Assembly: GCA_031280335.1 (NCBI GenBank)
Contig: JAITGZ010000041.1
Coordinates: 1 to 40,279 of the forward strand
DNA from: Deltaproteobacteria bacterium
GTDB lineage: Bacteria > Desulfobacterota > Desulfovibrionia > Desulfovibrionales > Desulfovibrionaceae
Direction: 5' to 3'
DNA length: 40,279 bases
Below, piece by piece: positions 10,960 to 26,994 of this stretch. The translations under genes and the position numbers were made by a program. Numbering within the stretch: position 1 is the stretch's first letter; every line of letters begins with the position of its first letter. Below the pieces are notes generated by a model, which did not search any database, had not been told where the DNA came from, and worked only from the letters and a program-made list of their open reading frames with translations.

Positions 10960-11523
10960 CTAATCTGTCAGATAGCTGACTGCACGTTTACGTGGTACGG
11001 GAGACGGTGCCGGGCCATCGGGCCAGCCTATGGCGGCGCAGCCATAGACGTGGTTTGTTTCGGGCACGCCCAGTTCCGTGAGCCGGGCGCGGAAGCCACT
11101 GTCGGCGCAGGCGCTGCCTAGTTGGTTGATCCAGCAGGAGCCCAGCCCCAGGGCGTGGGCGGCCAAAGCGATATTTCCCATGGCCAGGGCGCAGTCGGCT
11201 TCGGCTGTGGACAGCGCCGGGTCGGCCGAAACCAGAATGCAGACCGGGGCATGGTAATTCACTGTGTAGTTCGGGGAGCCCACGTACTGTTTATAGGGGT
11301 TATGGGACATGCGCGCCACAGCTTCCTTGAGGGCCAGAGTGAGACCGGCCAGACGTTCCTGACCGGTCAGCACGGCAAAGTGCCAGGGTTGCCTGCCCAT
11401 GCCGCTGGGGGCATGGAGTCCGGCTTCCACAATTTGTTCCAGGATATCCCTGGGCACAGACTTGGTCAGGAATTTGCGGATGCTGCGACGGGTGAGAATA
11501 TTTTCCAGTACGGCATTTTTCAT
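10960..11523 (-). CDS. nitroreductase family protein
   Basis: 187 aa. N-terminus ILTRRSIRKFLTKSVPRDILEQIVEAGLHAPSGMGRQPWHF is the classical FMN nitroreductase signature. Confidence 0.85.
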   Translation of the reverse strand: MKNAVLENILTRRSIRKFLTKSVPRDILEQIVEAGLHAPSGMGRQPWHFAVLTGQERLAGLTLALKEAVARMSHNPYKQYVGSPNYTVNYHAPVCILVSADPALSTAEADCALAMGNIALAAHALGLGSCWINQLGSACADSGFRARLTELGVPETNHVYGCAAIGWPDGPAPSPVPRKRAVSYLTD

Positions 11524-11635: not shown

Positions 11636-12928
11636 TTATTTCAGAGCGGCTTGCTCCGCGTCCGCCCCAATCATGATTTTCAGCACCTCCTCGTCTGTGG
11701 CGTGCATGCCTACGCTGGCCAGGCGGCCCACGCTGCGGATGGTCTCTTCCACATCCTGTTGCACAATGCCTTCGCCAGGAGAAAAGGAGTGGCTGCTCAT
11801 GGCCAGATCGTGGGCCATAATGGCGGCATCCAAGGCCGAGGCGATTTTTGCCGCGCAGGAGGGTTTTGCTCCGTCGCAGACAATGCCGGAGACATTGGCC
11901 AAGGTGTTGGTTATGGTATCCGTGATTTGTTTGAAATTGCCGCCGCTCAGCCAGGTAATTGCCGCCCCGCTGCCACAGGCCGCGCTTACCGCGCCGCAGT
12001 AAGCCGAAAGTTTGCCGATGCCGGATTTTTGATGGATGGCGATGAGGTTGCTGACCAGGAGGGCGCGGTATAACTTTTCTTGAGACAGGTTGAACTCCCT
12101 GGCATATTCAATAATAGGCAGAGAAACGGCCATGCCCTGGTTGCCGCTGCCCGAGTTGATGACAACCGGCAGCTCGCACCCGCTCATACGGGCATCGGAA
12201 CCGGCGGCGGCCCTGGCCTTGGCCCGGTTGCGCACGTCATCGCCTCGGCTGACCAGAAGCGTCCGCCCCACTCCGGCACCGTAGTTTCCGTGCAGTCCCT
12301 CCTCGGAAATATTCAGATTGCAGACGATTTGGCGATCCAGCACGTCGCGCGTCCAGGCGAGATCGCTGGTTTCGGCGAATTCCAGTATGCCGGCGACAGA
12401 CATGAAATCACGGCGGTGATCTTCCCGTTTGGCCGGTATATACGGGCCTCCGGCCAGAATGACGCCATCTTTTTCCTGGCGCACCACATTGGTATGGCTT
12501 TCGGCAATCTCTACCACCGCCTCATGCTCTTCCGCCCTGGCGGTCATGATAATGTGCAGGTTTTCCGACCCCGGCAGCAGTTCCACCCGGCAGAACCCTG
12601 AGTCCGCAAGTTCTTTGGCCCGCTCCACATGTTCCGGCCGCACACCGGAAAGCACCTCCAGCTTCCTGTCCGGGTCGCCGCCAAGAGCGCCCAGAATGGC
12701 CGCAATTTCCATGCCCTTCTGTCCGCCTGAGTTTGGCACAACCACGCCTTTGACGTTTTTAACAATATTGCCGCTGCAGGCCGCGTACAGGTTTTGAGGC
12801 TCACATCCCAGCAGACGGGTGGCCAGGGCACCGGCCAAGGCAACGGCGATGGGCTCCGTGCAGCCCAGGGCAGGCACCAGTTCTTCGTGCAGGATGTTGA
12901 CATATTGCCGGCAAAGGACAGCGTCCAT
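11636..12928 (-). CDS. UPF0597 / CyuA(YhaM)-type L-cysteine desulfidase homologue (serine dehydratase alpha-like)
   Basis: 430 aa. LVPALGCTEPIAVALAGA near the N-terminus and a Gly/Ala/Cys-rich core (GSGNQG, SAYCGAVSAACG) are typical of the family. It starts 4 nt after the NrfD-like gene ends. Confidence 0.75.
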   Translation of the reverse strand: MDAVLCRQYVNILHEELVPALGCTEPIAVALAGALATRLLGCEPQNLYAACSGNIVKNVKGVVVPNSGGQKGMEIAAILGALGGDPDRKLEVLSGVRPEHVERAKELADSGFCRVELLPGSENLHIIMTARAEEHEAVVEIAESHTNVVRQEKDGVILAGGPYIPAKREDHRRDFMSVAGILEFAETSDLAWTRDVLDRQIVCNLNISEEGLHGNYGAGVGRTLLVSRGDDVRNRAKARAAAGSDARMSGCELPVVINSGSGNQGMAVSLPIIEYAREFNLSQEKLYRALLVSNLIAIHQKSGIGKLSAYCGAVSAACGSGAAITWLSGGNFKQITDTITNTLANVSGIVCDGAKPSCAAKIASALDAAIMAHDLAMSSHSFSPGEGIVQQDVEETIRSVGRLASVGMHATDEEVLKIMIGADAEQAALK

Positions 12929-12932
12929 ACGT

Positions 12933-13919
12933 TTACCCGCTTATGCGCCAAGCGATTTGGGCAGTGGCGATCGCAAGCCCGATGCCCCCTATGCAAACGC
13001 GTGTTTCCATATGCGAGGGGGTGTATGATATCCTCGCTTGCCATTGGGCATAGGGCGCGGGCAGGCGGTTCTCCCGCTGGAGTTCCAGCATCATCCGTCT
13101 CTTTTCCCAGACCAGCAAGGCAATGGCCCCCAGGGCGGCGGGCCGGATCATAAAAACGGCCGGAGTATAAAGGCTCAGGAGTGCCGCGCCCGCCACGGCG
13201 AGGTCCGCGCAAAGCGCCCAGGAAAGGCGGGAGAGCGGCGGGGAGTCTTCAGGGTGTTTCAAGGCGAGCCTGGAGGCGCAATGCGTTAGTGCGGCCAGCA
13301 AGGAGAGGCCGAGAAAAAGCTTGGGAGCCGCGCTGGATATGGCGAGGCAACTGAGCAGGCCGGCCCCGCCGCAGGCGGCGCGGATCAACACTTCCAGAGC
13401 CAGGAACGGCTTGCCTTCGCCATTGCCGGCCAGGAGCAGCGCATGTGTCAGCAAAAAAGCGCCGGATGCGATTATGGAGCATATGGCCCAGGGCAGTCCC
13501 GGCGTCAGATTGCGGGCGCTGTAAACTACGCCCGCCATGACCAGTATGGCGTTCAGACAGAAGAGGTAAAAATCCCAGGTCATGGGAGACCCGGGATTTT
13601 TACCAAGAATCAGGAGAGGGCTGCGGAGGGGTTTGCCCAGATCCGCCGCAAGCAGGAGGCCGCCTCCCACAAGGCAGCCCATCGCCAGGGCGGGTGCCGC
13701 AGCAGGCATCACATTGGTGGCAAGGCGGCTTAAGCCCGCCAGAAGCAGCAGACCGCCTGCCAATGACCCCAAGGTAAAGAACCCCTGAATATACAGGCCC
13801 CAGGGGACGCGATCCGACAGGGCCGTGGCATTCAATCCGGCTGCCATCTGCCGCCGCAGCGCATGGGCACCGGCCAGCGCGGCCAGAAGGGCAAGGCACA
13901 GCGATATCCAGAAAAACAT
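12933..13919 (-). CDS. NrfD/PsrC-family polytopic membrane subunit
   Basis: RVPWGLYIQGFFTLGSLAGG and ADLGKPLRSPLLILGKNPGSPMTWD match NrfD-family hallmarks, and the product has multiple TM segments. The ATG at 13919 has GGAGG 5-6 nt upstream; the track start at 13982 overlaps the tautomerase gene. Confidence 0.75.
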   Translation of the reverse strand: MFFWISLCLALLAALAGAHALRRQMAAGLNATALSDRVPWGLYIQGFFTLGSLAGGLLLLAGLSRLATNVMPAAAPALAMGCLVGGGLLLAADLGKPLRSPLLILGKNPGSPMTWDFYLFCLNAILVMAGVVYSARNLTPGLPWAICSIIASGAFLLTHALLLAGNGEGKPFLALEVLIRAACGGAGLLSCLAISSAAPKLFLGLSLLAALTHCASRLALKHPEDSPPLSRLSWALCADLAVAGAALLSLYTPAVFMIRPAALGAIALLVWEKRRMMLELQRENRLPAPYAQWQARISYTPSHMETRVCIGGIGLAIATAQIAWRISG

Positions 13920-13962
13920 AAGGCCTCCGTACGGTCGGGAAAAAAAGTAAATCAGTATTTCC

Positions 13963-14163
13963 TCAACGTTTGGACCAGTCAATGTCGCTCGCCAGTTCTC
14001 CGCCAGTGGACCAGTTTTCCGTTTCGTAGTCCGTGAACAGGACGGTAATATTGGGGCGGCGTTTTTTAGCGATGCGCTCCACGCTGTCGGTAATTTCTTT
14101 GGCCAACTGGGCCTTTTGCTCGTGTGTGCATCCTTTCCAGAGTTCTACTTTGATGATGGGCAT
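13963..14163 (-). CDS. 4-oxalocrotonate tautomerase family protein
   Basis: 66 aa. MPIIKVELWKG has Pro right after Met (the catalytic Pro1 of the tautomerase superfamily), and the size is typical of the family. Confidence 0.75.
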   Translation of the reverse strand: MPIIKVELWKGCTHEQKAQLAKEITDSVERIAKKRRPNITVLFTDYETENWSTGGELASDIDWSKR

Positions 14164-14233
14164 AAGGTATTGTCCTTTGTCTTTTGTAATGTTTCAATGG
14201 TGAGATTGGGCAGTCAATTTACTTTAAAATGCT

Positions 14234-14860
14234 CTAATATTGCGGTGTTGCTCCGGGCAGGCATCTGTACCATACCGCAGGTTCTGTGCCCAGTTCCGGC
14301 CGCAGCCTGGAAGCATCGTGCCTGCCCAGCAGTCGCGAGATTTTAGAATCTTGATCCTCCATGTCGCCAAAGACGCGCGCGGCTGTGGGGCAAGCCTCCA
14401 CGCAGCCGGGCTCCCTCCCCTGGGCGCGGCGGGCGCGGCAGAAATCGCACTTCGCCACCGTGCCGGGTTCGAATTTTTTGCGGGCAAGGATTTCGTAGGG
14501 CGTGGGTTCCTCGTCCGGCCAATAGTTTCTGAAGGTCCAGAGAAAACGGCGAGCCTCATAAGGGCAGGCTTGCATACAGGCCCGGCAGCCAATGCAGGTG
14601 CCGGCATCGATCATCACCGCGCCGTCGGCCTCACGGCGGGTCGCCCCGGTGGGACAGGCGCGCAGACAGGGGGCGACGGCGCAGTGCATACACAGCACGG
14701 GCAGGGTATGCAGTCTGGAGTGCGGATAGGGGCCGTTTTCGTATTTAAGTACCCGGCTGAACAGAACCCCGGCCGGGGCACCCTGAATCTGGCGGCAGAT
14801 CATGGCGCAGGCCCCGCAGCCGATGCACTTTTGCAGGTCAATGAGCATTCCGACGCGCAT
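14234..14860 (-). CDS. 4Fe-4S ferredoxin-type electron-transfer subunit (DmsB/PsrB-like)
   Basis: 208 aa with four Cys clusters (CIGCGACAMIC, CMHCAVAPCLRACP, CIGCRACMQACP, CDFC...CVEACP). There is no N-terminal signal or Tat motif. Confidence 0.85.
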   Translation of the reverse strand: MRVGMLIDLQKCIGCGACAMICRQIQGAPAGVLFSRVLKYENGPYPHSRLHTLPVLCMHCAVAPCLRACPTGATRREADGAVMIDAGTCIGCRACMQACPYEARRFLWTFRNYWPDEEPTPYEILARKKFEPGTVAKCDFCRARRAQGREPGCVEACPTAARVFGDMEDQDSKISRLLGRHDASRLRPELGTEPAVWYRCLPGATPQY

Positions 14861-14877
14861 GGCGTACCTTCAGCGCC

Positions 14878-16224
14878 TCAGCCGCGCACACCGGCCACTT
14901 CAAGGATGGCCAGGGCTGAGACTTGGCAGTGTTTGATGAGTTGCGCCACACTTACCCGTTCATCCGGCGTTACCGGTACGACCCCGGCACCGTAATTCAG
15001 GCCGGGAATGCCCGCTCCCGCGAAGGAAACCAGGTCCGAACCGGCATAACGGCACCAATCCACCACCCGGTCCAGGGTGGTACCGTTGCTTTCCACGTCC
15101 ACAATCAGTTCTTCGCCGAAGATTTCCCTGTGCGCGGCCTTTAAGGCACCCAAAAGCGGCAGGTCACGCGGCGGGGCCACGGGTTTGTCCAGTTTAAGCC
15201 CGCCGGGTTCCGCGCCGGAAGTCACCGTAGCCCGCAGGCTTGGGTCTTCCACCCGCAGGTTGTAAACGATGCGCTCCAGATCGCGTTTTACGCTCTGGCG
15301 ATCCATGCCGGCCGGGTAACGCACATCGATCATGATGGAGCATTCCTCCACCCCCAAGCAGGGACGCGAGCCTGTACCCGGTACCTTGGAGGTGATCCGG
15401 CCAAAGGTGATAATGGGGTCGCCCAGAAAATGCCCGCGCTCATAAACGAAATTTTTGCGTACATTTTTGACTTCATTGAGTATCTTCAACATTTTATCCA
15501 CCGCGTTGACCTGGCGGAAGCCATCGTACGATGGGTGCAAGGTATAGCGCGAACTGTTGTGTCCCAACTGGCCGTACGTGGTGATGGTGAAAACCCCCAT
15601 ACCCACATTGGTGGACCATACGGAGCAGTCCGTCTGTTCGCCGTCGAAGATCATGTCCGGTTTGGGGCCCAGGCCGAGCGTGTCCCAGTTGGCGGCCATA
15701 TAGCGGGAGCCAACCAGTCCGCCGTTTTCCTGGCACCATCCGGCAAAAAGCAGATCCCCATCCAGTTCCGCGCCTGATTCCACAATGGCCTTGAAGGCTT
15801 CCATGAAAGACGCCACAGATTGTTTCATGTTAACCGTGCCCACGCCGTAGATATAACCATCGGCCACATCGCCGGAAAAAGGGTCATGGGTCCATTTTTC
15901 CGGGCTCACCACCGGCTCGGTATCCAGGTGGCCGCCGATCATCAGGCGCGGTCCAGTGCCTTTGCCGGGCATAAAGGCCATTACCTGCGGATGGTCGCCC
16001 TCGGTCTGCCCCGGTATATCCTTGGGCAGATCAATCACCTTCACCTTAAGGCCGAGGGCGCGGAAGTAATCGGCCACATGGGCGGCTATTTCCACTTCCG
16101 CGCTGGGTGTCTCCACCACGGAATTCATCCGGATGAGCCGGGAACACAGGGAAGTGAGACGCTCGCCGTTGATCCGCGCCAGCACGGCATCGCGTATTTT
16201 TTTTGGGGTTTTCAGACTGTGCAT
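14878..16224 (-). CDS. M20-family (ArgE/DapE/CPG2-like) metallohydrolase homologue with atypical metal-site residues
   Basis: The ATG at 16224 has GGAGG 5 nt upstream; the track start at 16320 lies in a repeat. GGHLDTEPVVSPEKWTHDPFSGDVADGYIYGVGTVNMK aligns by eye with the DapE GHTDVVP...YGRGAADMKG block. Confidence 0.75.
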   Translation of the reverse strand: MHSLKTPKKIRDAVLARINGERLTSLCSRLIRMNSVVETPSAEVEIAAHVADYFRALGLKVKVIDLPKDIPGQTEGDHPQVMAFMPGKGTGPRLMIGGHLDTEPVVSPEKWTHDPFSGDVADGYIYGVGTVNMKQSVASFMEAFKAIVESGAELDGDLLFAGWCQENGGLVGSRYMAANWDTLGLGPKPDMIFDGEQTDCSVWSTNVGMGVFTITTYGQLGHNSSRYTLHPSYDGFRQVNAVDKMLKILNEVKNVRKNFVYERGHFLGDPIITFGRITSKVPGTGSRPCLGVEECSIMIDVRYPAGMDRQSVKRDLERIVYNLRVEDPSLRATVTSGAEPGGLKLDKPVAPPRDLPLLGALKAAHREIFGEELIVDVESNGTTLDRVVDWCRYAGSDLVSFAGAGIPGLNYGAGVVPVTPDERVSVAQLIKHCQVSALAILEVAGVRG

Positions 16225-16290
16225 GTGTCCTCCATGGAAATATTTTTTTGGGAAACTCCCTGACAGTACGGCTTCCCGCGTTTCGCACAT

Positions 16291-16356
16291 GTTTTCAGCC
16301 TCTTTGCGGCTGAAAAACAACAGGGGGGCTGGGGGGAATTATTCCCTTCCCGGTGG
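16291..16356. repeat. hairpin repeat (family 2 modules) inside the operon
   Basis: ttttcagcc-tctttgc-ggctgaaaa hairpin plus ggggggaattattccc palindrome. The same two modules occur in inverted order at 27140-27207. Confidence 0.7.
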
Positions 16357-16391
16357 TGTTAGGGCAGATACTTGAATTTAATCATCCTTTT

Positions 16392-17408
16392 CTAAAAAAC
16401 AATGACGCTTCTGCCCAGTACTTTGCCGGCGGCCAGGCGTTCAGCGGCCTCGTTGAGTCCCGTGAGAGGGTATTGTTCCGTTACGCAGGGCGTGAGGAGA
16501 CCCTGGCGGACCAAGTCCACGGCATCGGTTACGCACTGTCTGGTCATGCCCAGGGAACCTTTGATGTTGATTTCTTTGAACATGGTCTGCCCCACCGGAA
16601 TGGAGAGGCTTTGATCCGTGGAGCCGACCAGGGCATACACCCCGCCCTTGCGCAGGGCGGCGGCCGAGATGTTGAAACTCTCCTGGCTGACCACATAATC
16701 AATAACCGCGTCCACGCCTTTGCCGCCGGTCAGGCGCAGGGTTTCCTGGAGCAGGTCTTTTTCCCGTGCATTGATGGTTTCGGCCGCGCCGAATTCACGG
16801 GCTTTGTCGAGTTTTTCTTTGGAACGCGCTGTGGCTATGACGCGGCATCCCGCCAGGCGCGCGATCTGTACCCCGTGCAGTCCAAGCCCCCCCACGCCGT
16901 AGATCAGCACGGTATCCGCAAGCCGCACCTGCGCCTGATCGCGTATGGCGTGCAGAGAGGTACAGATGGCATCGGGAATGGCGGCGGCGTCTGTAAAGCT
17001 GATGGTTTCGGGCAGGAGAGCCAATTGGTCTTCTTTGACCGTTACCAATTCAGCATGGCCGCCGGCGCACTCAAAACCCGTGCGAATCAGCCGCACGCAT
17101 AGGTTTTCGTGCCCGGAACGGCAGGCCGGGCAGCTTTTGCAGACATCGTACATATACACGACCACGCGGTCACCGGGGCTGCGGGCGCTCACGCCTGTGC
17201 CCACGGCCTCCACCACTCCGGCGATTTCATGTCCGGGGATATGGGGGAGCGTCAAGGCGGGGTTGCGTCCGGCGCGGATTTTCAGATCCCCGGGGCACAG
17301 GGCCGAGGCCTTGACCCGTACCAGAACCTCACCCGGACCGGGCAAGGGATCGGGCACATCCTCAAAGGCAAAGGGTTCGCCGAATTTTTTGATCAGGGCT
17401 GCTTTCAT
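16392..17408 (-). CDS. zinc-dependent medium-chain alcohol dehydrogenase (butanediol/threonine dehydrogenase-like)
   Basis: 338 aa. Catalytic-Zn ligands lie in ALCPGD and PGHEIAG, the structural-Zn motif is CKSCPACRSGHENLC, and the NAD fold is IYGVGGLG. Confidence 0.85.
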   Translation of the reverse strand: MKAALIKKFGEPFAFEDVPDPLPGPGEVLVRVKASALCPGDLKIRAGRNPALTLPHIPGHEIAGVVEAVGTGVSARSPGDRVVVYMYDVCKSCPACRSGHENLCVRLIRTGFECAGGHAELVTVKEDQLALLPETISFTDAAAIPDAICTSLHAIRDQAQVRLADTVLIYGVGGLGLHGVQIARLAGCRVIATARSKEKLDKAREFGAAETINAREKDLLQETLRLTGGKGVDAVIDYVVSQESFNISAAALRKGGVYALVGSTDQSLSIPVGQTMFKEINIKGSLGMTRQCVTDAVDLVRQGLLTPCVTEQYPLTGLNEAAERLAAGKVLGRSVIVF

Positions 17409-17488
17409 CAGAATGTCCTTGTAAAAATGCTTTGGAATGGTTTAACTTTGAGATCATACATGATCGGAACCCGCCATATTCAACATGT

Positions 17489-20116
17489 TCATTTCGAAAA
17501 TACTCCGGGCTGGCGGCCGATCGGGTACACCTTGACCTTGGGGGAGTTATCCAGGCCGCCGGAAATGGGATCCAGGTTTTCCGCTTCTTCTGCGGGCAGG
17601 AGTATGTTGAACCAAGCTCCTCCAGCTGGCATGACCGGGTTTATATAGTGTTCGTTGTAACCGCCGTAATTGCCGGGTATGCCCAGCACCTTGGGGTGGA
17701 TAAGCCCGGTAAGGCGCAGCTTGCCCCTAGTCTTGCCGTGCATGGACTCCACCCAGACTTCCTGACCGTCGTCCAGGGATTTTTCCTTGGCGGTGGCCGG
17801 GTGTATATGGATAAACATCTCGTAAGGGTCATCCTCGCGCAGCTCGTTGATCCAGGGATTGGCCATGTTGCCGCCTGTACCGTGCAGGCGGAAGCCGGTC
17901 TTCCAGTTGATGACGTAAAGATCGTATTCCGGCGGCGCTTCCCGGACATGGCTGGGGAACCAGAAGGGCACACCCGTGTAGTAGGCGAAAAAGTCTTTTT
18001 CCTCATTCACATAAGCGGGGTGGCGTATGCCGGCCTTGCGGAGATTTTCCCGCAGCTTCTTTGCGGTGCGCGGCAGACGCTCGAAATAGAAGGGGTGCCG
18101 TGTGGCGCTGCCCGGCCAATAGAAATAGTTGTAGCCTTTTTTGCCGGTGGCCGTGTATTTGTATAACTGCCCGGCCGCCTGGGCGGAGCGGTAGCTGTGC
18201 CCGTCGCCGAAGAGTTCGGCAATGAGGCGATCCCAGATATCCTCCAGGGGGTACTCCCGCTCCGGGTCAAGCCGGTGTTTTTCCGACAGGCGGTTCATCC
18301 GGTTGATCAAGCTGTGCATTTCCGGCAGGAATCCTCCCGCTCGGGCCAGGTCGTACAGTATCTGGTCGCTGCTTTTGGTGTCAAAGCGGCGGGGCACGGG
18401 ATTGCGCGCCAGGATCATTTCCAGCCCGCGCAGATCATCGTCAATGCTCTGTAAAGGCGGTTTGTAGATACGGATGCCGTCTTTTTCCAGAAAATGCGAG
18501 ACCGGCAGGATGATATCCGCAAGGCAGGAGGTTTCGTCAAAGTTGATGTTGATGCTGACCACCAGCGGCACCTTGCTCATGGCCTGGATCCAAAGATCCT
18601 GGTCGCTGATGCTGCGCACCGGGTTGGCACCCGCGAAGATAAAGAGTTCGATATCGTAGTCCAGATGATAACGTTTGGGGTCAAGAATATTACGTACCAC
18701 GATGGGCGGGGTGGTGTGCTTGTGCGGGAAGAACTCCCCGCCGTCGATATGGTGGGGGGGGAAGTGGAAGTCGCGGGGCACGGCCTCAACAATGGGCGTG
18801 ACCGTGCCGTCTTCGTCAGGCCGCAGTATATCGGGGCAAGGTCCGGGGCGGCTGCCTCCCGTACAGGCACCGGGCAGTTCCATGGCCCCCATGAGCATGT
18901 TGATGATCTTTACGCAGAGATCAAAATGGGTGCCGTTGCGGTGCGAGCAGGCACCCCGGCCGGAACCGCCCATCTGCACGGGCCGGAAGGGGAATTCAAA
19001 ACCGTCAATGACAATGGTCTTGCCCAGGCAGGCGTGTTCCACAAACTCCCTGGTGACCGTGCGGATGTCTTCCGCCGTAATGCCGGTGATTTTTTCCGCC
19101 CATTCCGGCGTGTATAAACGCATGCCGTTTTTCAGCAAACGAAAGCCTGTGCTGACTGGTTCTCCTTCCACTTCCAGGTCGGCGTCCAGTATGGGGTCCC
19201 GCACCTGGTCAAAAGGACGTGGTCCGTCGCTGCCCAGCATGAGCGGCTTGCCGCTTTGCGCATCACGCAGATAGGTGCCGTCAGGCGAGATGAGGTATGG
19301 CGCGTTGGTGCGTTCTTTCAGAAAATGCTCATCGTACGTGCCCAGCTCAAAGAGTATGCCGTGGATCATGGCCAGGGCAAAGGCCAGCTCCGTGCCCGGC
19401 AGAATGGGCAGCCACCTGTGGGCCTTGGAGGCTTCGGGCGAATGGCGCGGGTCAATGACCACCAGCTTCATGCCGCGTTCCAGGGCCCTGGTCAGACGTG
19501 CGGTGGAGTGCGGGCAGACAGTGTTGCCGCCCACAGTGCGTCCCGGCGCGATGAGATAGGTGCAGTATTCCAGGTCGGCAATCTGCTCCGGGTGCTGCGC
19601 GTGGACCAGGTTGGAAGCGAAGTGGATGGGGCAGAGTATGCCGTGGGAAGGCACATTGTTGGGCGTGCCGAAGGCTGTTGCAAAGATGCTGCCGTGGGCC
19701 ATACCCCCGGTCTCCGGGTTTTTGAGCATGATTTCACGCGCGAAAAGTTCATCGCAAACGCCCCAGCCCTCCATAAAGGCCATCTTGCGGGGGTCTGAAG
19801 CGCGTATTGCCCGCATTTTGGAGCCGATGAGCGCATATGCCTCATCCCAGGAAATGGCCTCCCAACCCGGATCTTCCGTGAGTCCTTTTTTGGGGTTGGT
19901 GCGGCGCATGGGGGAGCGGACGCGCTTGGGATCGTAATAACCCGGAATGGAGGCCAGCCCGCCCCGCATACAGAGTTTGCCCCGGTTGGTGGGCGTATCC
20001 GGGTCGCCGATGGTTTCCGTGACCACGCCGTCTTCCATGCGTATGAGCATGCCGCAGTCGTTCTGCAGGCACATGGCGCACCAACCCTTCAGCCAAACGG
20101 TATTTCCTTCAGACAT
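17489..20116 (-). CDS. molybdopterin (Mo/W-bisPGD) oxidoreductase catalytic subunit, PsrA/PhsA/acetylene-hydratase-like, no Tat signal
   Basis: 875 aa. The N-terminal FS0 motif CAMCLQNDC-x27-C starts at residue ~13 with no RRxFLK leader. FGTPNNVPSHGILC resembles the Cys-ligand segment of PsrA-type enzymes. Confidence 0.85.
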   Translation of the reverse strand: MSEGNTVWLKGWCAMCLQNDCGMLIRMEDGVVTETIGDPDTPTNRGKLCMRGGLASIPGYYDPKRVRSPMRRTNPKKGLTEDPGWEAISWDEAYALIGSKMRAIRASDPRKMAFMEGWGVCDELFAREIMLKNPETGGMAHGSIFATAFGTPNNVPSHGILCPIHFASNLVHAQHPEQIADLEYCTYLIAPGRTVGGNTVCPHSTARLTRALERGMKLVVIDPRHSPEASKAHRWLPILPGTELAFALAMIHGILFELGTYDEHFLKERTNAPYLISPDGTYLRDAQSGKPLMLGSDGPRPFDQVRDPILDADLEVEGEPVSTGFRLLKNGMRLYTPEWAEKITGITAEDIRTVTREFVEHACLGKTIVIDGFEFPFRPVQMGGSGRGACSHRNGTHFDLCVKIINMLMGAMELPGACTGGSRPGPCPDILRPDEDGTVTPIVEAVPRDFHFPPHHIDGGEFFPHKHTTPPIVVRNILDPKRYHLDYDIELFIFAGANPVRSISDQDLWIQAMSKVPLVVSININFDETSCLADIILPVSHFLEKDGIRIYKPPLQSIDDDLRGLEMILARNPVPRRFDTKSSDQILYDLARAGGFLPEMHSLINRMNRLSEKHRLDPEREYPLEDIWDRLIAELFGDGHSYRSAQAAGQLYKYTATGKKGYNYFYWPGSATRHPFYFERLPRTAKKLRENLRKAGIRHPAYVNEEKDFFAYYTGVPFWFPSHVREAPPEYDLYVINWKTGFRLHGTGGNMANPWINELREDDPYEMFIHIHPATAKEKSLDDGQEVWVESMHGKTRGKLRLTGLIHPKVLGIPGNYGGYNEHYINPVMPAGGAWFNILLPAEEAENLDPISGGLDNSPKVKVYPIGRQPGVFSK

Positions 20117-20134: not shown

Positions 20135-21439
20135 TCAAAATCCCATAAGCAGGGTCGGTAAAAAGAGTACTACGTGCGGCCAGGCAATCAAGACCGCCAG
20201 CAAAGCTATGGCGGCGAGCATAAAGGGGGCCACGCCCCGGTAGAGCAGCCCCAGGTTGTAGCCCGAAAGGCTTTTCAGCACAAAGACGTTGAGTCCAATG
20301 GGCGGGGAGATCTGGCCGATGTTGATGATGACCATGTTCACGATGCCCCACCAGACCAGGGAATAACCCATGCCGGTGATGATGGGCACTACCAGGGGCA
20401 GGGTGATGAGCATGGCGGCCAGACAGTCGAAGATCGCGCCCATGATAAAATAAACGAACATGAGCAGGGTAATGATCAGCCAGTTGGGCATGCCTGCGGC
20501 GGTAATGGCGTCAACCGTCACCTGCGCTATGCCGGAGAGGGCGATGAAGTAGCCGAAGATACCCGCGCCGATCATGATAATGTAAATCATGCCCATGGCC
20601 ACCACAGTGTCTTTGATGATCGCGCCGATGGTCTTGCGGTTGATCGCTTTACGGATGACGGCGAAGATAAGTGAAAGCACGCAGCCCACAGCCGCGCCTT
20701 CGTTCACGGTAAAGATGCCCGCGTAGATGCCGCCCAGTACGCCCAAAAGCAGCAAGATGGCGGCCCAGCTTTTTTTGAAGGCGTCAAGGACTTCCATGGC
20801 GCTCCGGCGTTGCCCCGCCGGTCCGGCTTGAGGATTGACAAGGCAGATCAGCCACACGGTAACGAAGAAGAGCAGAATGCACAGCATGGCGGGAATGAAA
20901 GCGGCCATGAAGAGTTCCACAATGAACTGGCCGGTCATGACCGCATAGAGTACCAGGGGAACTGAGGGAGGCACCAGGGTGCCCAGGCACCCGCCCGCAG
21001 CAATGACTCCTGTGGCTAAATATTTTGAATAATTACGGTTAATCATTTCAGGCAGGGCTACACTGGTAAAGGTGGCCGTGGTGGCCGCCGACGAGCCGCA
21101 GATGGCACCGAAAAAGCCGCAGCCGGCCACGGTGGCCATGGCCAGCCCGCCCCGGAAGTGCCCCACGCAGACATGAGCCAGCCGGTACAGATCGCCGGAC
21201 AGACCGGAAATGGTCGCCAGATTCCCCATGAGCAGGAACATGGGTGCCACGGCCGTATCCGGGCTGGAAAATTTGGCCATCACCTCTGTGGAGAGAAAAC
21301 TCATGGCGGCGGGGCGGCCGATGATGGCAGCGCAGCCGGCCAGGCCGGCCACGCACATGGCGATGCCGATGGGTACGCGCAGGATGATTAGGGCGAACAT
21401 GCCCGCTATGCCGAAGATGGCGAGGGTGGTGGGTTCCAT
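20135..21439 (-). CDS. dctM: TRAP transporter large permease (DctM family)
   Basis: The ATG at 21439 (MEPTTLAIFGIAG...) overlaps the DctQ stop (ATGA). The product is ~434 aa and highly hydrophobic, with typical DctM length. Confidence 0.85.
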   Translation of the reverse strand: MEPTTLAIFGIAGMFALIILRVPIGIAMCVAGLAGCAAIIGRPAAMSFLSTEVMAKFSSPDTAVAPMFLLMGNLATISGLSGDLYRLAHVCVGHFRGGLAMATVAGCGFFGAICGSSAATTATFTSVALPEMINRNYSKYLATGVIAAGGCLGTLVPPSVPLVLYAVMTGQFIVELFMAAFIPAMLCILLFFVTVWLICLVNPQAGPAGQRRSAMEVLDAFKKSWAAILLLLGVLGGIYAGIFTVNEGAAVGCVLSLIFAVIRKAINRKTIGAIIKDTVVAMGMIYIIMIGAGIFGYFIALSGIAQVTVDAITAAGMPNWLIITLLMFVYFIMGAIFDCLAAMLITLPLVVPIITGMGYSLVWWGIVNMVIINIGQISPPIGLNVFVLKSLSGYNLGLLYRGVAPFMLAAIALLAVLIAWPHVVLFLPTLLMGF

Positions 21440-21945
21440 CACGCCTCCTTGGGGGTGGAGAGGTTGCGGATGCCGTTTATTATGGGAGTCAGGGCAGCGA
21501 TGGAGGCAAAGAGGAAACATGCGGCCACCAGGGTCCACCACGGTTCCAGGGGAACGCCCAGCACCTGCGTAACCTCATTGTTCTCCCCCATGTACTCCGC
21601 CGCCTTCCATACCTCCCAGGCGATGCCCATAAAGATGCAGGCAGTGAGTATATTGGCCAGTACCGCCAGGATGCTTCCAACTTTTTTACCCACCACGAGT
21701 ACGATGAATTCCACGGCAATATTGCCTTCTTTCATCAGCAGTACCGGCATGGTCAGGCCCACGCACACCGCGATGAACAGCGAGAGCAAATCGCGTACGC
21801 CCGTGATGGGCGCGTTGAAGCAATAGCGCATGATGACATCCGCCGCGATGGAACAGGAAAGCACCACCAAACCGGTTATGCCGATGATGGCAAGCATCCA
21901 GGCAATTCTGGTGACTGTTCGGATAAAAAGTTCAAGCGCACGCAT
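21439..21945 (-). CDS. dctQ: TRAP transporter small permease (DctQ family)
   Basis: The ATG at 21945 (MRALELFIRTVTRIAWML...) gives ~168 aa with 4 TM segments. The track start at 22155 reads through the MITE. Confidence 0.8.
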   Translation of the reverse strand: MRALELFIRTVTRIAWMLAIIGITGLVVLSCSIAADVIMRYCFNAPITGVRDLLSLFIAVCVGLTMPVLLMKEGNIAVEFIVLVVGKKVGSILAVLANILTACIFMGIAWEVWKAAEYMGENNEVTQVLGVPLEPWWTLVAACFLFASIAALTPIINGIRNLSTPKEA

Positions 21946-21963
21946 TCGGAATCCTTTCCTGTA

Positions 21964-22195
21964 GAGGAAACACTGATTAATTCGGGGCTTCGCCCCGAAC
22001 CCCGCTGGGGGGAATAAGAAAGGGGCATGTTCGCCCAGGCGCAGCCTTATCCTTGCGCTATCCGTTAGGGTGCCTTGCCGCCTAAGGGATAGCGCAAGGG
22101 GGCAAAAGGGGCATGTTTGCCCAGGCGTTGCTTTACCTCTGCCATCCCTCTGCACAACGGCAAGGCACCCTCAAGAGAATAAATCAGCGTTTCCC
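21964..22195. mobile_element. MITE-like element, copy 2, carrying a nested ~86-bp insertion
   Basis: It has the same ends as copies 1 and 3 and TA on both sides (21962-21963, 22196-22197). The internal extra segment (about 22041-22126) has a perfect 12-bp stem, cttgcgctatcc...ggatagcgcaag, and duplicates aaaggggcatgtt.gcccaggcg. Confidence 0.75.
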
Positions 22196-23256
22196 TAAAT
22201 CTTATTGGTTTTGATGTATTCGCGGGCCTTGGTCACTTCCTCGATATACATTTCATAAACCGGCGGGAAGCGCTTGTCGGTTTTGAGCCATCCCTGCACT
22301 GCCGAATCCAGGGCTTTTTTCCATTCCGCAGCCAGGGTTTCGTCCAGATCGATGTTGGTGGAGCGGGGGTCGGCGCGCTCGCGTTTTTCCACGCCGGCGT
22401 TAAAATCATCCCATTCCTTGGAATAGGTGATGCCAAGTTCCAGGCCGCTGTGCTTGAGCAGAATGTCCTTGGCCGCTGCCGGCAGTTTGTCGAAGGAGCG
22501 TTTGCTGATGACAATGGGGAAGAGGTTGGTGCCGAAGGGAATATAGGTGTGGCACTTAGCCACATCCACCACGCGGAAGGTCTCCATGCCCTGCCATTCT
22601 CCCACCGTACCCTGCATGACGTTGCGGCTGATGTTTTCCGCGACTTTGGAGATGCTTTCGGCCACCGGGGTGCCGCCTGCCGCCAGGATTAGGTCCTGCT
22701 GCATCTTGCCGGCGGTGCGGATTTTCAGCCCGGCCATATCCTTGGGGCTGCGCACAGGTTTGATGGTGTGCAGAAAGTACTGGGCCTGGGCGTTCATGCT
22801 CAGGGGAATAATGTCGCGCCAGCCGCTGAACGCGTTTTTCAAGTACATGTTGTGTACGGCAATGGTGGCTTCCAGCATGTTGTAGGCCACAAAGGGCACA
22901 TTGGTCACTGTGGCTTCGGGGAACCGCCCCGGCGTGTAGGGTACGCTGGCCCCCAGGGTGATGTCGGCCACGCCGTCGATGATCATCTTGAGCTGCTGGG
23001 TGGGGTCGGGGCCAAGCTGTCCGTTGGGGTAGAAGTCGATTTTAAGCACCCCTTCCCCGGCCTGGTTGATTTTGTTGATCCAAGGGATGAGTACCTTGAC
23101 CGGGGAAAAAGCCTGCGCCGGTTCATAGGTGCCGAACTTCAGCACTGTGGGCGCGGCTTGGGCCCTGCGCAGCACTGCGGGAAAACCGATGGACGCCGCA
23201 GCCAAACCGCCGACGGCAATGCCTTTGAGAAATTTACGCCTGGTGTAAGTAGTCAT
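22195..23256 (-). CDS. dctP: TRAP transporter substrate-binding protein (DctP family) with twin-arginine-type signal peptide
   Basis: The ATG at 23256 has GGAGG 7 nt upstream. The product starts MTTYTRRKFLKGIAVGGLAAASIGFPAVLRRAQA. The DctP fold includes GLKIRTAG, the position of the conserved carboxylate-binding Arg in the family. Confidence 0.85.
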   Translation of the reverse strand: MTTYTRRKFLKGIAVGGLAAASIGFPAVLRRAQAAPTVLKFGTYEPAQAFSPVKVLIPWINKINQAGEGVLKIDFYPNGQLGPDPTQQLKMIIDGVADITLGASVPYTPGRFPEATVTNVPFVAYNMLEATIAVHNMYLKNAFSGWRDIIPLSMNAQAQYFLHTIKPVRSPKDMAGLKIRTAGKMQQDLILAAGGTPVAESISKVAENISRNVMQGTVGEWQGMETFRVVDVAKCHTYIPFGTNLFPIVISKRSFDKLPAAAKDILLKHSGLELGITYSKEWDDFNAGVEKRERADPRSTNIDLDETLAAEWKKALDSAVQGWLKTDKRFPPVYEMYIEEVTKAREYIKTNKI

Positions 23257-23355
23257 GGGAACCTCCGTAGCAAAGGAATGGTTTGATGCAGTTTTGCCAT
23301 AAATTCCATAAACAGCAACCCCCATCGCCTGCTTGTGGGCGCGGGCGAAAGACGG

Positions 23356-24612
23356 TCAAAAAACCTCGCATCCCGGCAGGCCGCAGGATATGAGATGGTC
23401 ACTGGGAAAATTTGTGATGATTTCACAGCCGTTTTTGGTAACCACCACCTCCTCTTCAATGCGGGCCGCGCCGGAGCCGTCAGCCGAACCGCACCATGTT
23501 TCCACGGCAAAGACCATGCCTTCCTTGAGTTCCGTGGGATAGTCGAAGTTGAAGCGGCGGGACAGGATGGGCCTCTCCCATAGGGAAAGGCCGATGCCGT
23601 GCCCGTACTGCAAAAGGTAGGCTTCATGTTCGTCTTTTAGGCCAAAGGCTTCAGGCGCCGGCCAGGCGGCGGCCACATCGGCCGTGCTGGCCCCGGGTTT
23701 GATGCGGTCAATGGAGTCCGAGAGCCAGCGTGAAGCTTTTTCGTACGCCTCCATCTGGTATTTGTTTGGTTTGCCGCAGATGAAAGTTCGGTAATAACAG
23801 GTGCGGTAGCCGTTAAAGGAGTGCATGATGTCCAGAAAAACCATGTCGCCCGGCTGAATGATGCGGTCCGCAAAAGTGTGGGAGTGGGGCATGCCCCGTG
23901 GTCCGGAATTGGCGTTTACCGCCTCTACCCATTCGGAACCCAGACGGTACAGGGAGTCGTTGGCAACGGCCACCAGCTCGTTTTCACGGCGTCCGGGCCG
24001 TATGGCCCGGACTATGTCCGTATAGGCGGCGTCCACCATGGCGGCGGCCTGCTTAAGCAAATCTATTTCATCCGGGGTTTTGATCTCCCTGGCGTCCAGC
24101 AGGGCCTGCATGCCGTCCCTGACCTTGATGCCTTCATCCTGGAGCGCCTGCAGCATGGACATTTCCATAAGATCCACGCCCAGCGGCTCGTTGTCGCAAC
24201 CCATGCCGGCGAGGGTTTCTTTTATTTGGCGCGCGAAGGTCTTCTGCACCTCCATGGAGGGAGGCAGCGCGCCGCACATGTTGGAGATGGGCGGAGAAAG
24301 GCGGTCTTCCAGCCAGGGGCAGGTGAGGCGTTTGGCCGGCACGGCCGGGTCAAAGAGCCAGGGTTTACCTTTGGCCGGGCACAGGGCGTAACGGTTCATC
24401 TTGTCGCGGCACCACTGGCCGATATGGGTGCCCGTCACATAGCGGATATTGTCGAAGTTGAAGACCAGCACAGCGCCCAGGCCGTGGGCGCGCAGGGCTT
24501 CCTGCGCCCTGGCGATGCGCTCGCGGATAAGGCGCCGGAAATCAACCCCGGCTTCCCAGTCTTTGTCCATAGTTCCGAAACGGGCTGTGGCATGGGGGTG
24601 GTTGTAGAGCAT
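23356..24612 (-). CDS. M24 pita-bread-fold hydrolase (creatinase / Xaa-Pro peptidase / DoeA / DddP superfamily)
   Basis: 418 aa with an N-terminal creatinase-like domain and a C-terminal M24 core (PGDMVFLD, YGHGIGL, FAVETW, ARIEEE). Its AAGGAG RBS overlaps the stop codon of the E2 gene (12-nt gap). Confidence 0.8.
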   Translation of the reverse strand: MLYNHPHATARFGTMDKDWEAGVDFRRLIRERIARAQEALRAHGLGAVLVFNFDNIRYVTGTHIGQWCRDKMNRYALCPAKGKPWLFDPAVPAKRLTCPWLEDRLSPPISNMCGALPPSMEVQKTFARQIKETLAGMGCDNEPLGVDLMEMSMLQALQDEGIKVRDGMQALLDAREIKTPDEIDLLKQAAAMVDAAYTDIVRAIRPGRRENELVAVANDSLYRLGSEWVEAVNANSGPRGMPHSHTFADRIIQPGDMVFLDIMHSFNGYRTCYYRTFICGKPNKYQMEAYEKASRWLSDSIDRIKPGASTADVAAAWPAPEAFGLKDEHEAYLLQYGHGIGLSLWERPILSRRFNFDYPTELKEGMVFAVETWCGSADGSGAARIEEEVVVTKNGCEIITNFPSDHLISCGLPGCEVF

Positions 24613-25935: not shown

Positions 25936-25960
25936 ACGCGCCTCCATCCTCCGCCGGGGG

Positions 25961-26959
25961 TTACGCGGTTCCGCCGGGCCGGACCATCTCCCTGATTTTT
26001 GCCGCAATGGATTTTTCATCGGGAATCAGGGGGAACTCCAGGGCCGGGCTGAAGGGCATGGGGACATCCGCCGTGCCCAGGCGTTCAATGGGGGCATCCA
26101 GATCATAGAAAACTTCCGGCATGATGCGCAAGGCGATTTCGCCGCTGATGCCAAAGCCGGTATGCCCTTCATCCACTATGAGAAGTCTGCCGGTTTTCTT
26201 GACGGAATGGATGATGCTGTTCGTATCCAGCGGCACGATGGTACGCAGGTCGATGAGCTCCACTGAAATACCTTCCGCCTCCAGAGAGGCGGCGGCCTTT
26301 TCCGCCTTGTTCACCATCATGGAGAGCGCCGCCACGGTGATGTCCCCGCCCTCTCTTACCATACGGGCCTTGCCGAAAGGAATGGGCGCGCCTTCGTCTT
26401 TGTCCGGAACATCGTTGAATTTGACGGTGTAGAGCATCTTGTGTTCAAAAAAAATGACCGGGTTATTGTCGCGTATGGCGGTCTTGAGCAAGCCTTTGGC
26501 CTCTCCGGCGGTGGCGGGCAGAACCACCTTAAGGCCGGGACAGTGGGCCATCCAGGCGTGCGGACTCTGGGAATGCTGGGCTGCGGAGGAACGCCCCCCG
26601 CCCAGGGGCATACGGACGACCAGGGGCACGCACGCCTGCCCGCCGGACATATATGAAATTTTAGCGGCCTGGTTGCAAATCTGATCCATGGCCACTGTCA
26701 GAAAATCCGCAAACATGAGTTCCACCACCGGCCGGCAGCCGGCAATGGCCGCTCCCACGCCCAAACCCACAATACCTGCCTCGGAAATGGGGGAGTCCTT
26801 GCAGCGCAGGTCGCCGTATTTTTCCAAAAGACCCACGGTGCATTTGAAATTGCCGCCTATAACCCCCACATCCTCTCCAATGACAAATATGGTTCCATCC
26901 CTGGCCATTTCCTCGTCCAGGGCTTCTTGTATCGCCTCTCTGTACATGATTTCGCGCAT
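25961..26959 (-). CDS. acoB: TPP-dependent (acetoin/2-oxoacid) dehydrogenase E1 beta subunit
   Basis: 332 aa. MREIMYREAIQEALDEEMARD, GEDVG..GG and the transketolase-like C-terminal domain are typical of E1 beta. GGAGG lies 9 nt upstream. Confidence 0.85.
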   Translation of the reverse strand: MREIMYREAIQEALDEEMARDGTIFVIGEDVGVIGGNFKCTVGLLEKYGDLRCKDSPISEAGIVGLGVGAAIAGCRPVVELMFADFLTVAMDQICNQAAKISYMSGGQACVPLVVRMPLGGGRSSAAQHSQSPHAWMAHCPGLKVVLPATAGEAKGLLKTAIRDNNPVIFFEHKMLYTVKFNDVPDKDEGAPIPFGKARMVREGGDITVAALSMMVNKAEKAAASLEAEGISVELIDLRTIVPLDTNSIIHSVKKTGRLLIVDEGHTGFGISGEIALRIMPEVFYDLDAPIERLGTADVPMPFSPALEFPLIPDEKSIAAKIREMVRPGGTA

Positions 26960-26994
26960 TGCGCATATCCTCCGGCGTCAGTTCTTGGGGGCTG

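Follow-up and report, generated by a model that had tools for sequence, protein, structure and literature searches.

The 40,279-nucleotide stretch of DNA analysed here, which we call the window (positions 1 to 40,279 of contig JAITGZ010000041.1, assembly GCA_031280335.1, from a deltaproteobacterium of the Desulfovibrionaceae), encodes a catalytic subunit of the Mo/W-bisPGD type, i.e. with domains for a molybdenum or tungsten bis(pyranopterin guanine dinucleotide) cofactor (A), an iron-sulfur (FeS) subunit (B) and an NrfD-type membrane subunit (C), which are predicted to form a complex that faces the cytoplasm. In its architecture this complex works like PadBCD, the phenylacetyl-CoA:acceptor oxidoreductase, and it probably does so in its electron flow as well. 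We hold with moderate confidence that it is a membrane complex that carries out the redox step, a water-dependent oxidation, for a set of genes serving the catabolism of an organic acid that is taken up through a tripartite ATP-independent periplasmic (TRAP) transporter. Water-dependent oxidation of C-H bonds by molybdenum enzymes is one of the few anaerobic attacks on inert carbon and, to our knowledge, only a handful of enzymes of this kind have been characterised, namely the ethylbenzene and steroid dehydrogenases, PadBCD and resorcinol hydroxylase. The locus described here defines a large uncharacterised sister group of PadB. What is more, the group is accompanied by a fixed set of helper enzymes, which should make it possible to discover its substrate. 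The result is a testable lead to an unknown anaerobic pathway, and it will not come as a surprise to specialists.

Subunits and predicted orientation of the complex

The three subunit genes lie on the minus strand in the order A - Zn-dependent alcohol dehydrogenase (Zn-ADH) - M20 hydrolase - B - tautomerase - C, as was also read in the preliminary description of this DNA, which was made from its letters and open reading frames (ORFs):

17489-20116, minus strand: catalytic Mo/W-bisPGD subunit A, 875 amino acids (PF04879, PF00384, PF01568)
14234-14860, minus strand: four-cluster [4Fe-4S] subunit B, 208 amino acids (Pfam Fer4_11 and related models)
12933-13919, minus strand: NrfD/PsrC-family membrane subunit C, 328 amino acids (Pfam NrfD, PF03916, 28.2 bits)

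The identities first proposed for these genes hold up against Pfam and, for C, against AlphaFold2 modelling followed by Foldseek. By its domains, A belongs to the dimethyl sulfoxide (DMSO) reductase or MopB superfamily, and its cofactor is predicted from the same domains: PF00384 and PF01568 score 67 and 41 bits, both above their gathering cut-offs, and PF04879 scores 33.7 bits. The protein begins with MSEGNTVWLKGWCAMC, and across 25 diverse homologues the FS0 cluster cysteines C13, C16 and C49 show no variation, with C21 conserved to at least 90%. Cys162, likewise invariant in 25 homologues, is the putative metal ligand of A; namely, it aligns with Cys173 of Thermus PsrA (2vpw), the Mo ligand of that enzyme.

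Neither A nor B can carry a twin-arginine (Tat) leader. In-frame TGA codons lie 21 nucleotides 5' of the ATG of A, which is itself preceded by AAGGA, a Shine-Dalgarno-like sequence, and 12 nucleotides 5' of the ATG of B, and because of these stops a leader on either protein is impossible. The preliminary description had read the FS0 motif of A as starting at about residue 13, with no twin-arginine leader, and B as starting directly with its first ferredoxin motif, and had named an upstream in-frame start that adds a Tat leader as a refuting result; no such start exists. B contains 16 cysteines in four ferredoxin-type motifs (counted by eye), has neither a signal peptide nor a transmembrane helix, and is 40-71% identical to the gene that adjoins the Mo subunit in most related loci. 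The profiles of exported enzymes (PhsA, ArrA, NapA and QrcB for A; DsrO, NrfC and TtrB for B) match the two proteins only from profile positions 38-47 onward, the alignments of B with DsrO, NrfC and TtrB (also ArrB) beginning at about positions 38-43. In other words, both matches start after the signal stretch, and the signal region of the exported enzymes is missing. The leader RRKFLKG noted earlier in DctP, the binding protein of the TRAP transporter encoded nearby, does pass the Tat-signal model TIGR01409 (20.1 bits versus a cut-off of 16.7).

The gene of C lies 315 bp downstream of that of B, with the tautomerase gene alone between them. Its ORF spans 12933-13982 and the preliminary description had placed the start at the TTG at 13982; the identity of the gene stands, and the start does not. 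Namely, GGAGG lies 6 nucleotides upstream of the ATG at 13919, homologues begin there and gene call P0121 of the protein collection agrees, so that the true start is almost certainly this ATG, giving 328 amino acids. The Pfam NrfD score is marginal (28.2 bits versus a cut-off of 25.8), and the fold was for this reason tested by modelling. A profile search of 1.84 billion representative proteins returned 973 relatives of C at E <= 1e-3, and the AlphaFold2 model, built from 49 relatives, has a pLDDT of 93.9, a pTM of 0.93 and ten transmembrane (TM) helices. In Foldseek it matches ActC of alternative complex III (ACIII) with a template-modelling score of 0.72-0.77 and PsrC (2vpw_C) with 0.71, normalised to PsrC, at E-values from 1e-7 to 1e-5. 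As modelled, C is a genuine NrfD/PsrC-fold protein with two four-helix bundles.

A further indication of orientation comes from the charges on C. Reference NrfD proteins were aligned to the family profile and the lysines and arginines (K+R) in the loops were tallied for each face, side A being the face with the conserved WG and DLG(K/R)PxR motifs (DLGKPxR in window C); in the structures of Psr and ACIII it is this face that touches the FeS subunit. The ratio of K+R on side A to side B is 15 : 3 for window C, 15 : 0 for PadD of Aromatoleum and 14 : 2 for the NrfD protein of the related locus L090, all three with leaderless partners, versus 6 : 8 for E. coli NrfD, 7 : 11 for E. coli HybB and 5 : 8 for the Tat-partnered NrfD of Sulfuricella, all with exported partners. 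The representative set is bimodal: near relatives of C almost all have A >> B, and more distant members mostly have B > A. The same tally was made for every NrfD-type ORF in the related loci. In 36 other loci in which the Mo subunit has no Tat motif, the side A loops of the NrfD ORF carry 9-16 K+R and the side B loops 0-5; the bias is reversed or absent in the Tat-bearing loci L039, L042, L051, L065 and L086. By the positive-inside rule, this bias puts the FeS-docking face of C in the cytoplasm, which is evidence for the orientation independent of the absent leaders. Leaderless A and B, together with the inverted charge bias of C, predict that the complex faces the cytoplasm, and the orientation proposed earlier is strengthened by the fact that NrfD bias tracks leader state over about 40 loci. 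Within this enzyme group, loss of the Tat leader goes with a flipped charge bias of the NrfD anchor, a rule that needs sequence only and by which Psr-type complexes in metagenomes could be annotated for their orientation and, through it, for their bioenergetics.

As a separate observation on this gene, a terminator-like hairpin with a 17-bp stem, GGTAAAAATCCCGGGTC...GACCTGGGATTTTTACC, followed by a T-rich tract (13604-13565, minus strand), lies inside the coding region of C, over the conserved GKNPGSPMTWDFY motif.

Kinship with PadB and comparison with other enzymes

The protein collection contains 1141 homologues of A at E <= 1e-10, and the best-scoring full-length ones are all 850-920 amino acids long, which is the leaderless length, and bear no functional names. 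A scan of one genome per GTDB species gave 79 loci. In one of these (L029, Aromatoleum toluclasticum), the Mo homologue has downstream of it an FeS gene, a 299-amino-acid membrane gene of the DmsC/NrfD clan and fdhD, and further downstream genes score above the NCBIfam equivalog cut-offs for PadE, PadG, PadH and PadI. Since padE, padG, padH and padI are present, L029 is a pad cluster and its Mo subunit is PadB; NCBIfam has no model for PadB or SoeA, and PadB itself scores as a weak PhsA. PadBCD is a membrane-bound Mo-FeS enzyme that oxidises phenylacetyl-CoA (PMC4453571, PMC5109826). A aligns with this context-defined PadB end to end, with 29% identity and 340 bits, versus about 125 bits for Salmonella PhsA and 128 bits for ArrA. 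By this comparison PadB is the closest characterised relative of A, and the kinship with PadBCD that the preliminary description had suggested is borne out. The best PDB matches of A are ArrA (6cz7, 2e-36) and PsrA (2vpw, 1e-27), and its scores lie far below the equivalog cut-offs of PhsA (207.7 versus 694), ArrA (135 versus 1600) and TtrA (34.6 versus 1750).

In a neighbour-joining tree of 116 sequences and 798 columns with 100 bootstraps, the subclade of the window protein (at least 54% identity) has 100% support, and so does the PadB clade (L029, L030, L034, L046, L052), with the window protein outside it. A is for this reason not a PadB orthologue. The window clade joins Sporomusa, Dehalococcoidia and two Deferribacterales sequences with 98% support, and the whole radiation is split from PhsA, the Sulfuricella Psr-like enzyme and other Tat-bearing sequences with 82%. 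Placement inside a characterised periplasmic clade, which would have spoken against a cytoplasmic enzyme, is thus not what the tree gives. Even when N-termini are taken at their longest possible, the radiation is mostly without an RR motif, the first FS0 cysteine being at about residue 16-30, and clear Tat motifs occur in 8 loci. The Tat-bearing Deferribacterales proteins of L008 and L009 (SRRTVLKAAG, 34% identity to A) are nested next to the window clade, which suggests that orientation switched during the evolution of the group; an NrfD-type ORF was not detected in either of these two loci.

Two further branches deserve a mention. A subclade at about 52% identity (P0022, P0024, P0025 and L004, the last with CMMCMQADDG) has lost the third FS0 cysteine and has no Molybdop_Fe4S4 match; it may be a variant without FS0, and an FeS-B gene was not detected near the Mo subunit in L004. 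A distinct leaderless clade from Proteobacteria (L066, L072-L082; hosts Magnetospirillum, Woeseiaceae, Amphritea and Burkholderiaceae), with 25-30% identity, YCYQCVAGPD as its N-terminal motif, an FeS gene next to that of the Mo subunit and an NrfD protein that is inside-positive, could be a candidate SoeA lineage. Leaderless 'Unk' subgroups and long Azoarcus and Dechloromonas branches were already flagged in an older phylogeny (PMC2500031).

The likeness to PadBCD extends to all three subunits. Both have a leaderless catalytic subunit of about 870 amino acids with FS0 and an aligned Cys, a four-cluster B (43% identity between window B and PadC) and, in the membrane, a DmsC/NrfD-clan subunit with the same inside-positive docking side, and both stand in an anaerobic organic-acid catabolic cluster with a 2-oxoacid-oxidising enzyme encoded nearby. 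PadD matches the NrfD profile of the window at 2e-11, as well as the Pfam DmsC model, and BLASTP of window C against PadD found no similarity. That said, the complex is not a member of PadBCD, from which it departs in clade, gene context and sequence of the membrane subunit. In Pfam and NCBIfam scans, the window has neither padJ, the CoA ligase gene, nor padEFGHI, which are present in L029, and E1 and E2 genes of the pyruvate dehydrogenase (PDH) type stand in their place. Window C has 328 amino acids and 10 TM helices, whereas PadD has 299 and 8 aligned helices, and the pad cluster contains none of the partners Zn-ADH, tautomerase, M20/M24 and TRAP. Finally, the host of the window is one of the Desulfovibrionaceae, presumably using menaquinone, whereas pad hosts are denitrifiers.

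The preliminary description had implied that cytoplasm-facing Psr-type complexes are rare, which the precedents of PadBCD, SoeABC and SreABC contradict; a survey of MopB enzymes lists SoeABC and bacterial SreABC as cytoplasmic and Cys-ligated, and describes a large, under-appreciated SreA/SoeA radiation (PMC10100899). SoeABC and SreABC are likewise three-subunit Psr-type enzymes with NrfD-type anchors, but their substrates are inorganic sulfur compounds, and the window has no sulfur-oxidation context. PsrABC, PhsABC and ArrAB(C) share the cofactor domains, Cys ligand, four-cluster B and NrfD-fold C, but have Tat leaders, a periplasm-facing orientation, contiguous genes, inorganic substrates and the opposite NrfD charge bias. 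In the resorcinol pathway of Azoarcus anaerobius, the cytoplasmic Mo-bisPGD hydroxylase RhLS and the PDH-like BqdhLSM are encoded in one anaerobic cluster, which is like the window in combining a Mo hydroxylase with PDH-like E1/E2/E3 in one catabolic cluster. RhL belongs to the Ser-ligated pyrogallol-transhydroxylase lineage, and not to the Cys-ligated Psr/PadB enzymes (PMC10100899). In this sense the architecture is already known, and what appears undescribed is the present clade with its fixed companion set.

A conserved set of companion genes

The subunit genes belong to one long minus-strand series, running from about 28.2 kb down to 10.9 kb of the window, with a divergent activator gene beyond its upstream end. 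The other genes are:

28423-30519, plus strand: sigma-54 activator, GAF-PAS-AAA+-HTH, divergent (Pfam Sigma54_activat, GAF, PAS_4, HTH_8)
27223-28179, minus strand: PDH-type E1 alpha (Pfam E1_dh)
25961-26959, minus strand: PDH-type E1 beta (Pfam Transket_pyr; NCBIfam PDH E1 beta, 391 bits versus a cut-off of 321)
24625-26019, minus strand: PDH-type E2 (Pfam 2-oxoacid_dh)
23356-24612, minus strand: M24 metallohydrolase, creatinase/prolidase fold, 418 amino acids (PF00557, PF01321)
22195-23325, minus strand: TRAP DctP, with the Tat-type signal RRKFLKG (PF03480)
21439-22155, minus strand: TRAP DctQ (PF04290)
20135-21541, minus strand: TRAP DctM (PF06808)
16392-17408, minus strand: Zn-dependent medium-chain alcohol dehydrogenase, 338 amino acids (PF08240, PF00107)
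14878-16320, minus strand: M20 (ArgE/DapE-like) metallo-amidohydrolase, ORF of 480 amino acids (PF01546, PF07687)
13963-14163, minus strand: 4-oxalocrotonate-tautomerase-family protein, 66 amino acids, Pro1 (PF01361, 54.9 bits)
11636-12928, minus strand: SDH_alpha-fold protein, 430 amino acids, directly downstream of the NrfD gene (PF03313, 225 bits)
10960-11523, minus strand: nitroreductase-family flavoprotein, 187 amino acids, final same-strand gene (PF00881, 106.8 bits)

The preliminary description had called the enzymes encoded between the subunit genes unrelated. This does not stand: ADH, tautomerase, M20/M24 and DctPQM recur beside the Mo subunit in public contigs of relatives that are 53-78% identical to A, whose gene orders, with their identities to A, are as follows:

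L094 (74%; the closest relative with a long enough contig): DctPQM - A - ADH - (cut)
L003 (71%): A - B - NrfD - Opp transporter - M20
L083 (62%): A - tautomerase - DctPQM - B - NrfD
L001 and L088 (61-62%): GntR - DctPQM - A - B - ADH - tautomerase - M20 - membrane ferredoxin
L095 (59%): ADH - tautomerase - M20 - A - B - membrane ferredoxin
L084, L089 and a JGI contig (54-57%): sigma-54 activator - class III aminotransferase - A - B - membrane ferredoxin - ADH - tautomerase - M24 - ... - DctPQM
L090 (53%): DctPQM - A - B - NrfD - NarJ-type chaperone

DctPQM adjoins the Mo subunit in L001, L083, L084, L088, L089, L090 and L094, and the tautomerase lies beside it in L001, L083, L084, L088, L089, L095 and the JGI contig. 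The 338-amino-acid ADH recurs in L084, L088, L089, L094, L095 and the JGI contig, M20 is found also in L088, L095 and L003, and M24 also in L084, L089 and the JGI contig. The partners are close relatives of their counterparts as well: the ADH, tautomerase and M20 of the window are 61%, 70% and 65% identical to those of L001, and its M24 is 52% identical to that of the actinobacterial L007, where the order is M24 - E1 alpha - E1 beta - E3 - E2 - A - B. Interleaving of the same genes is seen again in L083 and L094, and L094 shares its order DctPQM - A - ADH with the window. Judged by these gene orders, the window presents a conserved module in one of its permutations, and the intervening genes are one functional module with A. 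Literature searches for publications on a molybdopterin or DMSO-reductase-family enzyme with a tautomerase, TRAP or anaerobic degradation found none that describes this gene set.

As for the individual partners, the tautomerase starts with MPIIKVE and scores 53.1 bits against TIGR00013, just under the cut-off of 56.9. PDB alcohol dehydrogenases match the Zn-ADH at up to 197 bits. The M20 protein scores 138 bits against TIGR01910, below its cut-off, and its true start may be internal, since homologues have about 454 amino acids versus 480 in the ORF. In the PDB, M24 comes closest to prolidases and to M24 proteins of the DddP type, with about 90 bits, and the SDH_alpha-fold protein matches the L-cysteine desulfidase 9he0 at 2e-26. 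The ORF starts of DctQ and DctM are probably over-extended, and the true start of E2 is probably internal as well, since its ORF overlaps E1 beta by 59 nucleotides. Among the genes near the cluster, asparaginyl-tRNA synthetase has as its best named matches a Desulfovibrionaceae metagenome-assembled genome (MAG), at 78% identity, and Desulfovibrio sp. OttesenSCG-928, at 71-73%. Its homologues assign the contig to an uncultured lineage of the Desulfovibrionaceae, a relative of gut-type sulfate reducers.

PDH-type E1/E2 genes are found near A in L001, L005 and L007, more rarely than the other partners, with E3 also present in L001 and L007. A PDH-type set thus heads the cluster in a member of the Desulfovibrionaceae, where one would expect pyruvate:ferredoxin oxidoreductase, and three further phyla also have this set next to the Mo subunit. 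Its positions in the window and in these loci are:

window, 24625-28179, minus strand
L001, 19031-22664
L007, 3938-9057
L005, 4264-6251

In many relatives, a protein of about 315 amino acids takes the place of NrfD. Its N-terminal membrane part, for which there is no Pfam model, consists of 4-5 TM helices and contains conserved histidines; towards the C-terminus follow a 2x[4Fe-4S] ferredoxin domain and a CxxC...CxxC pair. It is encoded at:

L001, 15924-16871
L084, 13257-14201
L088, 12033-12965
L089, 13255-14199
L095, 11440-12429

This protein may be an unclassified quinone-interacting anchor, possibly with haem b, and with it the electron-transfer chain of these relatives would again be on the cytoplasmic side and linked to the membrane.

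Two observations concern the variety within the group. One MAG, GCA_031554975.1, contains two paralogous clusters, L003 (71%) and L083 (62%), with an Opp-type ABC transporter in the one versus TRAP in the other and with different companions, which suggests that substrate specificity diversified within one organism. Furthermore, corrinoid methyltransferase genes (MtmB-family or URO-D-family, with a B12-binding protein) adjoin the cluster in L095 (1-2147) and L001 (16971-18983), and could point to an N-methylated substrate in these lineages.

Proposed function, its rivals and candidate regulation

In the function that we favour, A and B would sit on the cytoplasmic face, docked on C, a 10-helix NrfD-type quinone-interacting protein whose topology would be inverted relative to Psr, Nrf and ACIII. 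At the Mo site the substrate, either the imported compound itself or something derived from it, would be oxidised by hydroxylation of an activated or sp2 C-H, water supplying the oxygen, and the electrons would pass from FS0 through the four clusters of B to menaquinone at C. The tautomerase would act on a product in the enol or lactim form and yield the keto form, the Zn-ADH would interconvert alcohol and carbonyl, the M20 and M24 hydrolases would cleave amide bonds, and the PDH-type E1/E2 would turn the resulting 2-oxo acid into an acyl-CoA. The partner kept closest to A is the tautomerase, and this suggests an enol or lactim tautomer as product or substrate, as expected after hydroxylation of an sp2 carbon.

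A number of points weigh against this picture. The assembly of the three proteins is, like the direction of electron flow and the order of the steps, something that we infer, and the positive-inside rule, on which part of the orientation depends, is a statistical predictor and not a measurement. No Mo-enzyme chaperone of the NarJ/TorD or FdhD type is encoded in the window operon, whereas L090 encodes one of the NarJ type and the pad cluster has fdhD. A and PadB share only 29% identity and belong to different clades, and their substrates and chemistry may differ entirely. Likewise, kinship with PadB and the catabolic neighbours are the only pointers to the direction of catalysis, and many relatives in the Psr/Phs/Arr group are reductases. 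Lastly, in a sulfate reducer it would be thermodynamically difficult to hydroxylate a poorly activated C-H if menaquinone takes up the electrons.

In the main rival, the same cytoplasmic architecture serves as a terminal reductase: menaquinol would be oxidised at C and the electrons passed through B to A, which would take an oxygen atom or a hydroxyl group off a TRAP-imported acceptor such as an S-oxide, N-oxide, nitro or hydroxylated compound, with an energy-conserving geometry like that of NarGHI. The nearest solved or curated relatives, ArrA, PsrA and PhsA, are indeed reductases, the host belongs to the respiratory Desulfovibrionaceae, a nitroreductase-family gene ends the cluster in both the window and the JGI contig, and a cytoplasmic active site combined with quinol oxidation on the periplasmic side would be electrogenic. 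We nevertheless find this unlikely: PadB, the closest characterised relative, is an oxidase-type enzyme, the PDH-type E1/E2, aminotransferase, amidohydrolase and ADH partners look carbon-catabolic and not acceptor-only, and this subunit set is found in no known cytoplasmic organic-acceptor reductase.

The other rivals would change the location, the subunit composition or the substrate of the enzyme. Tat hitch-hiking is known for some redox enzymes, and the Tat-bearing proteins of L008 and L009 are nested among leaderless relatives, so that one could argue for a periplasmic complex, exported in this way or through an unannotated start codon; we give this scarcely any credence, since no extension is possible on A or B, the operon encodes no third, Tat-bearing redox subunit, and the inverted charge bias of the NrfD protein is what one would expect if docking is cytoplasmic. 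A soluble cytoplasmic enzyme made of A and B, resembling acetylene hydratase or pyrogallol transhydroxylase, with the NrfD-like gene having a separate function, would agree with the three genes not being adjacent and with L007 and L091, where no membrane partner is detectable within the available sequence. It is quite improbable in view of the inside-positive NrfD/DmsC-type genes that lie a few kb from a leaderless Mo subunit in 36 other loci, of the TM-ferredoxin fusion that often substitutes where NrfD is absent, and of the four-cluster B, which is the standard partner of NrfD (PMC6303296). Finally, a cytoplasmic sulfite:quinone oxidoreductase of the SoeABC type, disposing of sulfite from an imported organosulfur compound, would have the same plan of a leaderless A, an FeS B and a cytoplasm-facing NrfD-type C, SoeA being cytoplasmic and Cys-ligated (PMC10100899). 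TRAP transporters import sulfonates in Desulfovibrionaceae (PMC11668362), and a cysteine-desulfidase-like gene adjoins C. That said, scans with Pfam and curated profiles found no desulfonating enzyme of the Xsc, SuyAB, IslA or CuyA type among the window genes, a sulfate reducer would reduce sulfite via Dsr rather than oxidise it, and the conserved ADH, tautomerase and M20/M24 set would have no role in sulfite oxidation, all of which makes this possibility very improbable.

As for the substrate, an aromatic or heteroaromatic acid is a weak lead. Namely, PadB is the nearest characterised enzyme, and UbiD-type and Amidohydro_2-type genes are found in the clusters of some relatives. The PDB proteins closest to DctP, namely 7nr2, 5i5p, 5iga and 7nqg (also 5izz), are presumably aromatic-acid TRAP binding proteins; literature searches on 7nr2, 7nqg, 5i5p and 5izz gave nothing usable on this point. 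In L090 (4180-6964 and 14199-14876), there are genes for a short-chain dehydrogenase/reductase (SDR), a protein of the 3-hydroxyacyl-CoA dehydrogenase type (3HCDH) and a BKACE protein, together with a NarJ/TorD-type chaperone and a creatininase-family gene. Its SDR - 3HCDH - BKACE series resembles PGR, TfD and TAL, i.e. three of the four enzymes of the phloroglucinol pathway (PMC10470551), which hints at a polyphenol-related substrate in the L090 subclade. An assignment of M24 or M20 as the ring-cleaving dihydrophloroglucinol cyclohydrolase was rejected, that enzyme being of the 'cyclase' family (PMC10470551). Ectoine, creatine, DMSP (dimethylsulfoniopropionate), organosulfonates and nitroalkanes, which the M24, aminotransferase and nitroreductase genes had brought to mind, found no specific support as substrates, and the scores for DoeA, DddP and creatinase fall far short of the cut-offs of these models.

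A bolder proposal, which we put forward only tentatively and would not yet bet on, is that the clade at about 53% identity or more marks an undescribed O2-independent pathway, in which cytoplasm-facing, menaquinone-coupled Mo hydroxylation with water acts on a common imported acid, amide-containing or (hetero)aromatic. Its product would be tautomerised, ring-opened or deacylated, and then fed to the 2-oxoacid dehydrogenase. The clade is spread over the Desulfovibrionaceae, other Thermodesulfobacteriota, Chloroflexota, Actinomycetota and Clostridia, so that such a pathway, if real, would be a widespread and so far unrecognised way in which carbon and nitrogen are turned over anaerobically in guts, peat and sediments.

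As regards regulation, the divergent sigma-54 activator is a candidate regulator of the cluster, and sigma-54 activators precede the Mo cluster also in L084, L089 and the JGI contig. When consensus sigma-54 promoters were sought with at most one mismatch, none turned up ahead of the operon; the one site obtained precedes an Fe-ADH gene (30648-31760), and chance alone would give as many matches. A near-consensus promoter, TGGCATACCGTTTGCA (30525-30540, plus strand), lies just after the activator gene and before the Fe-ADH gene, and a weaker GG-N10-GC element, GGGAACGCCTTTTGCA (28340-28325, minus strand), seen by eye, lies ahead of E1 alpha. At the other end of the series is the nitroreductase gene; in the JGI contig, too, a nitroreductase gene comes after the cluster. 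Judging by a sigma-70-like site at 11576-11547 that matches at 11 of 12 positions, the gene in the window may be transcribed from a promoter of its own.

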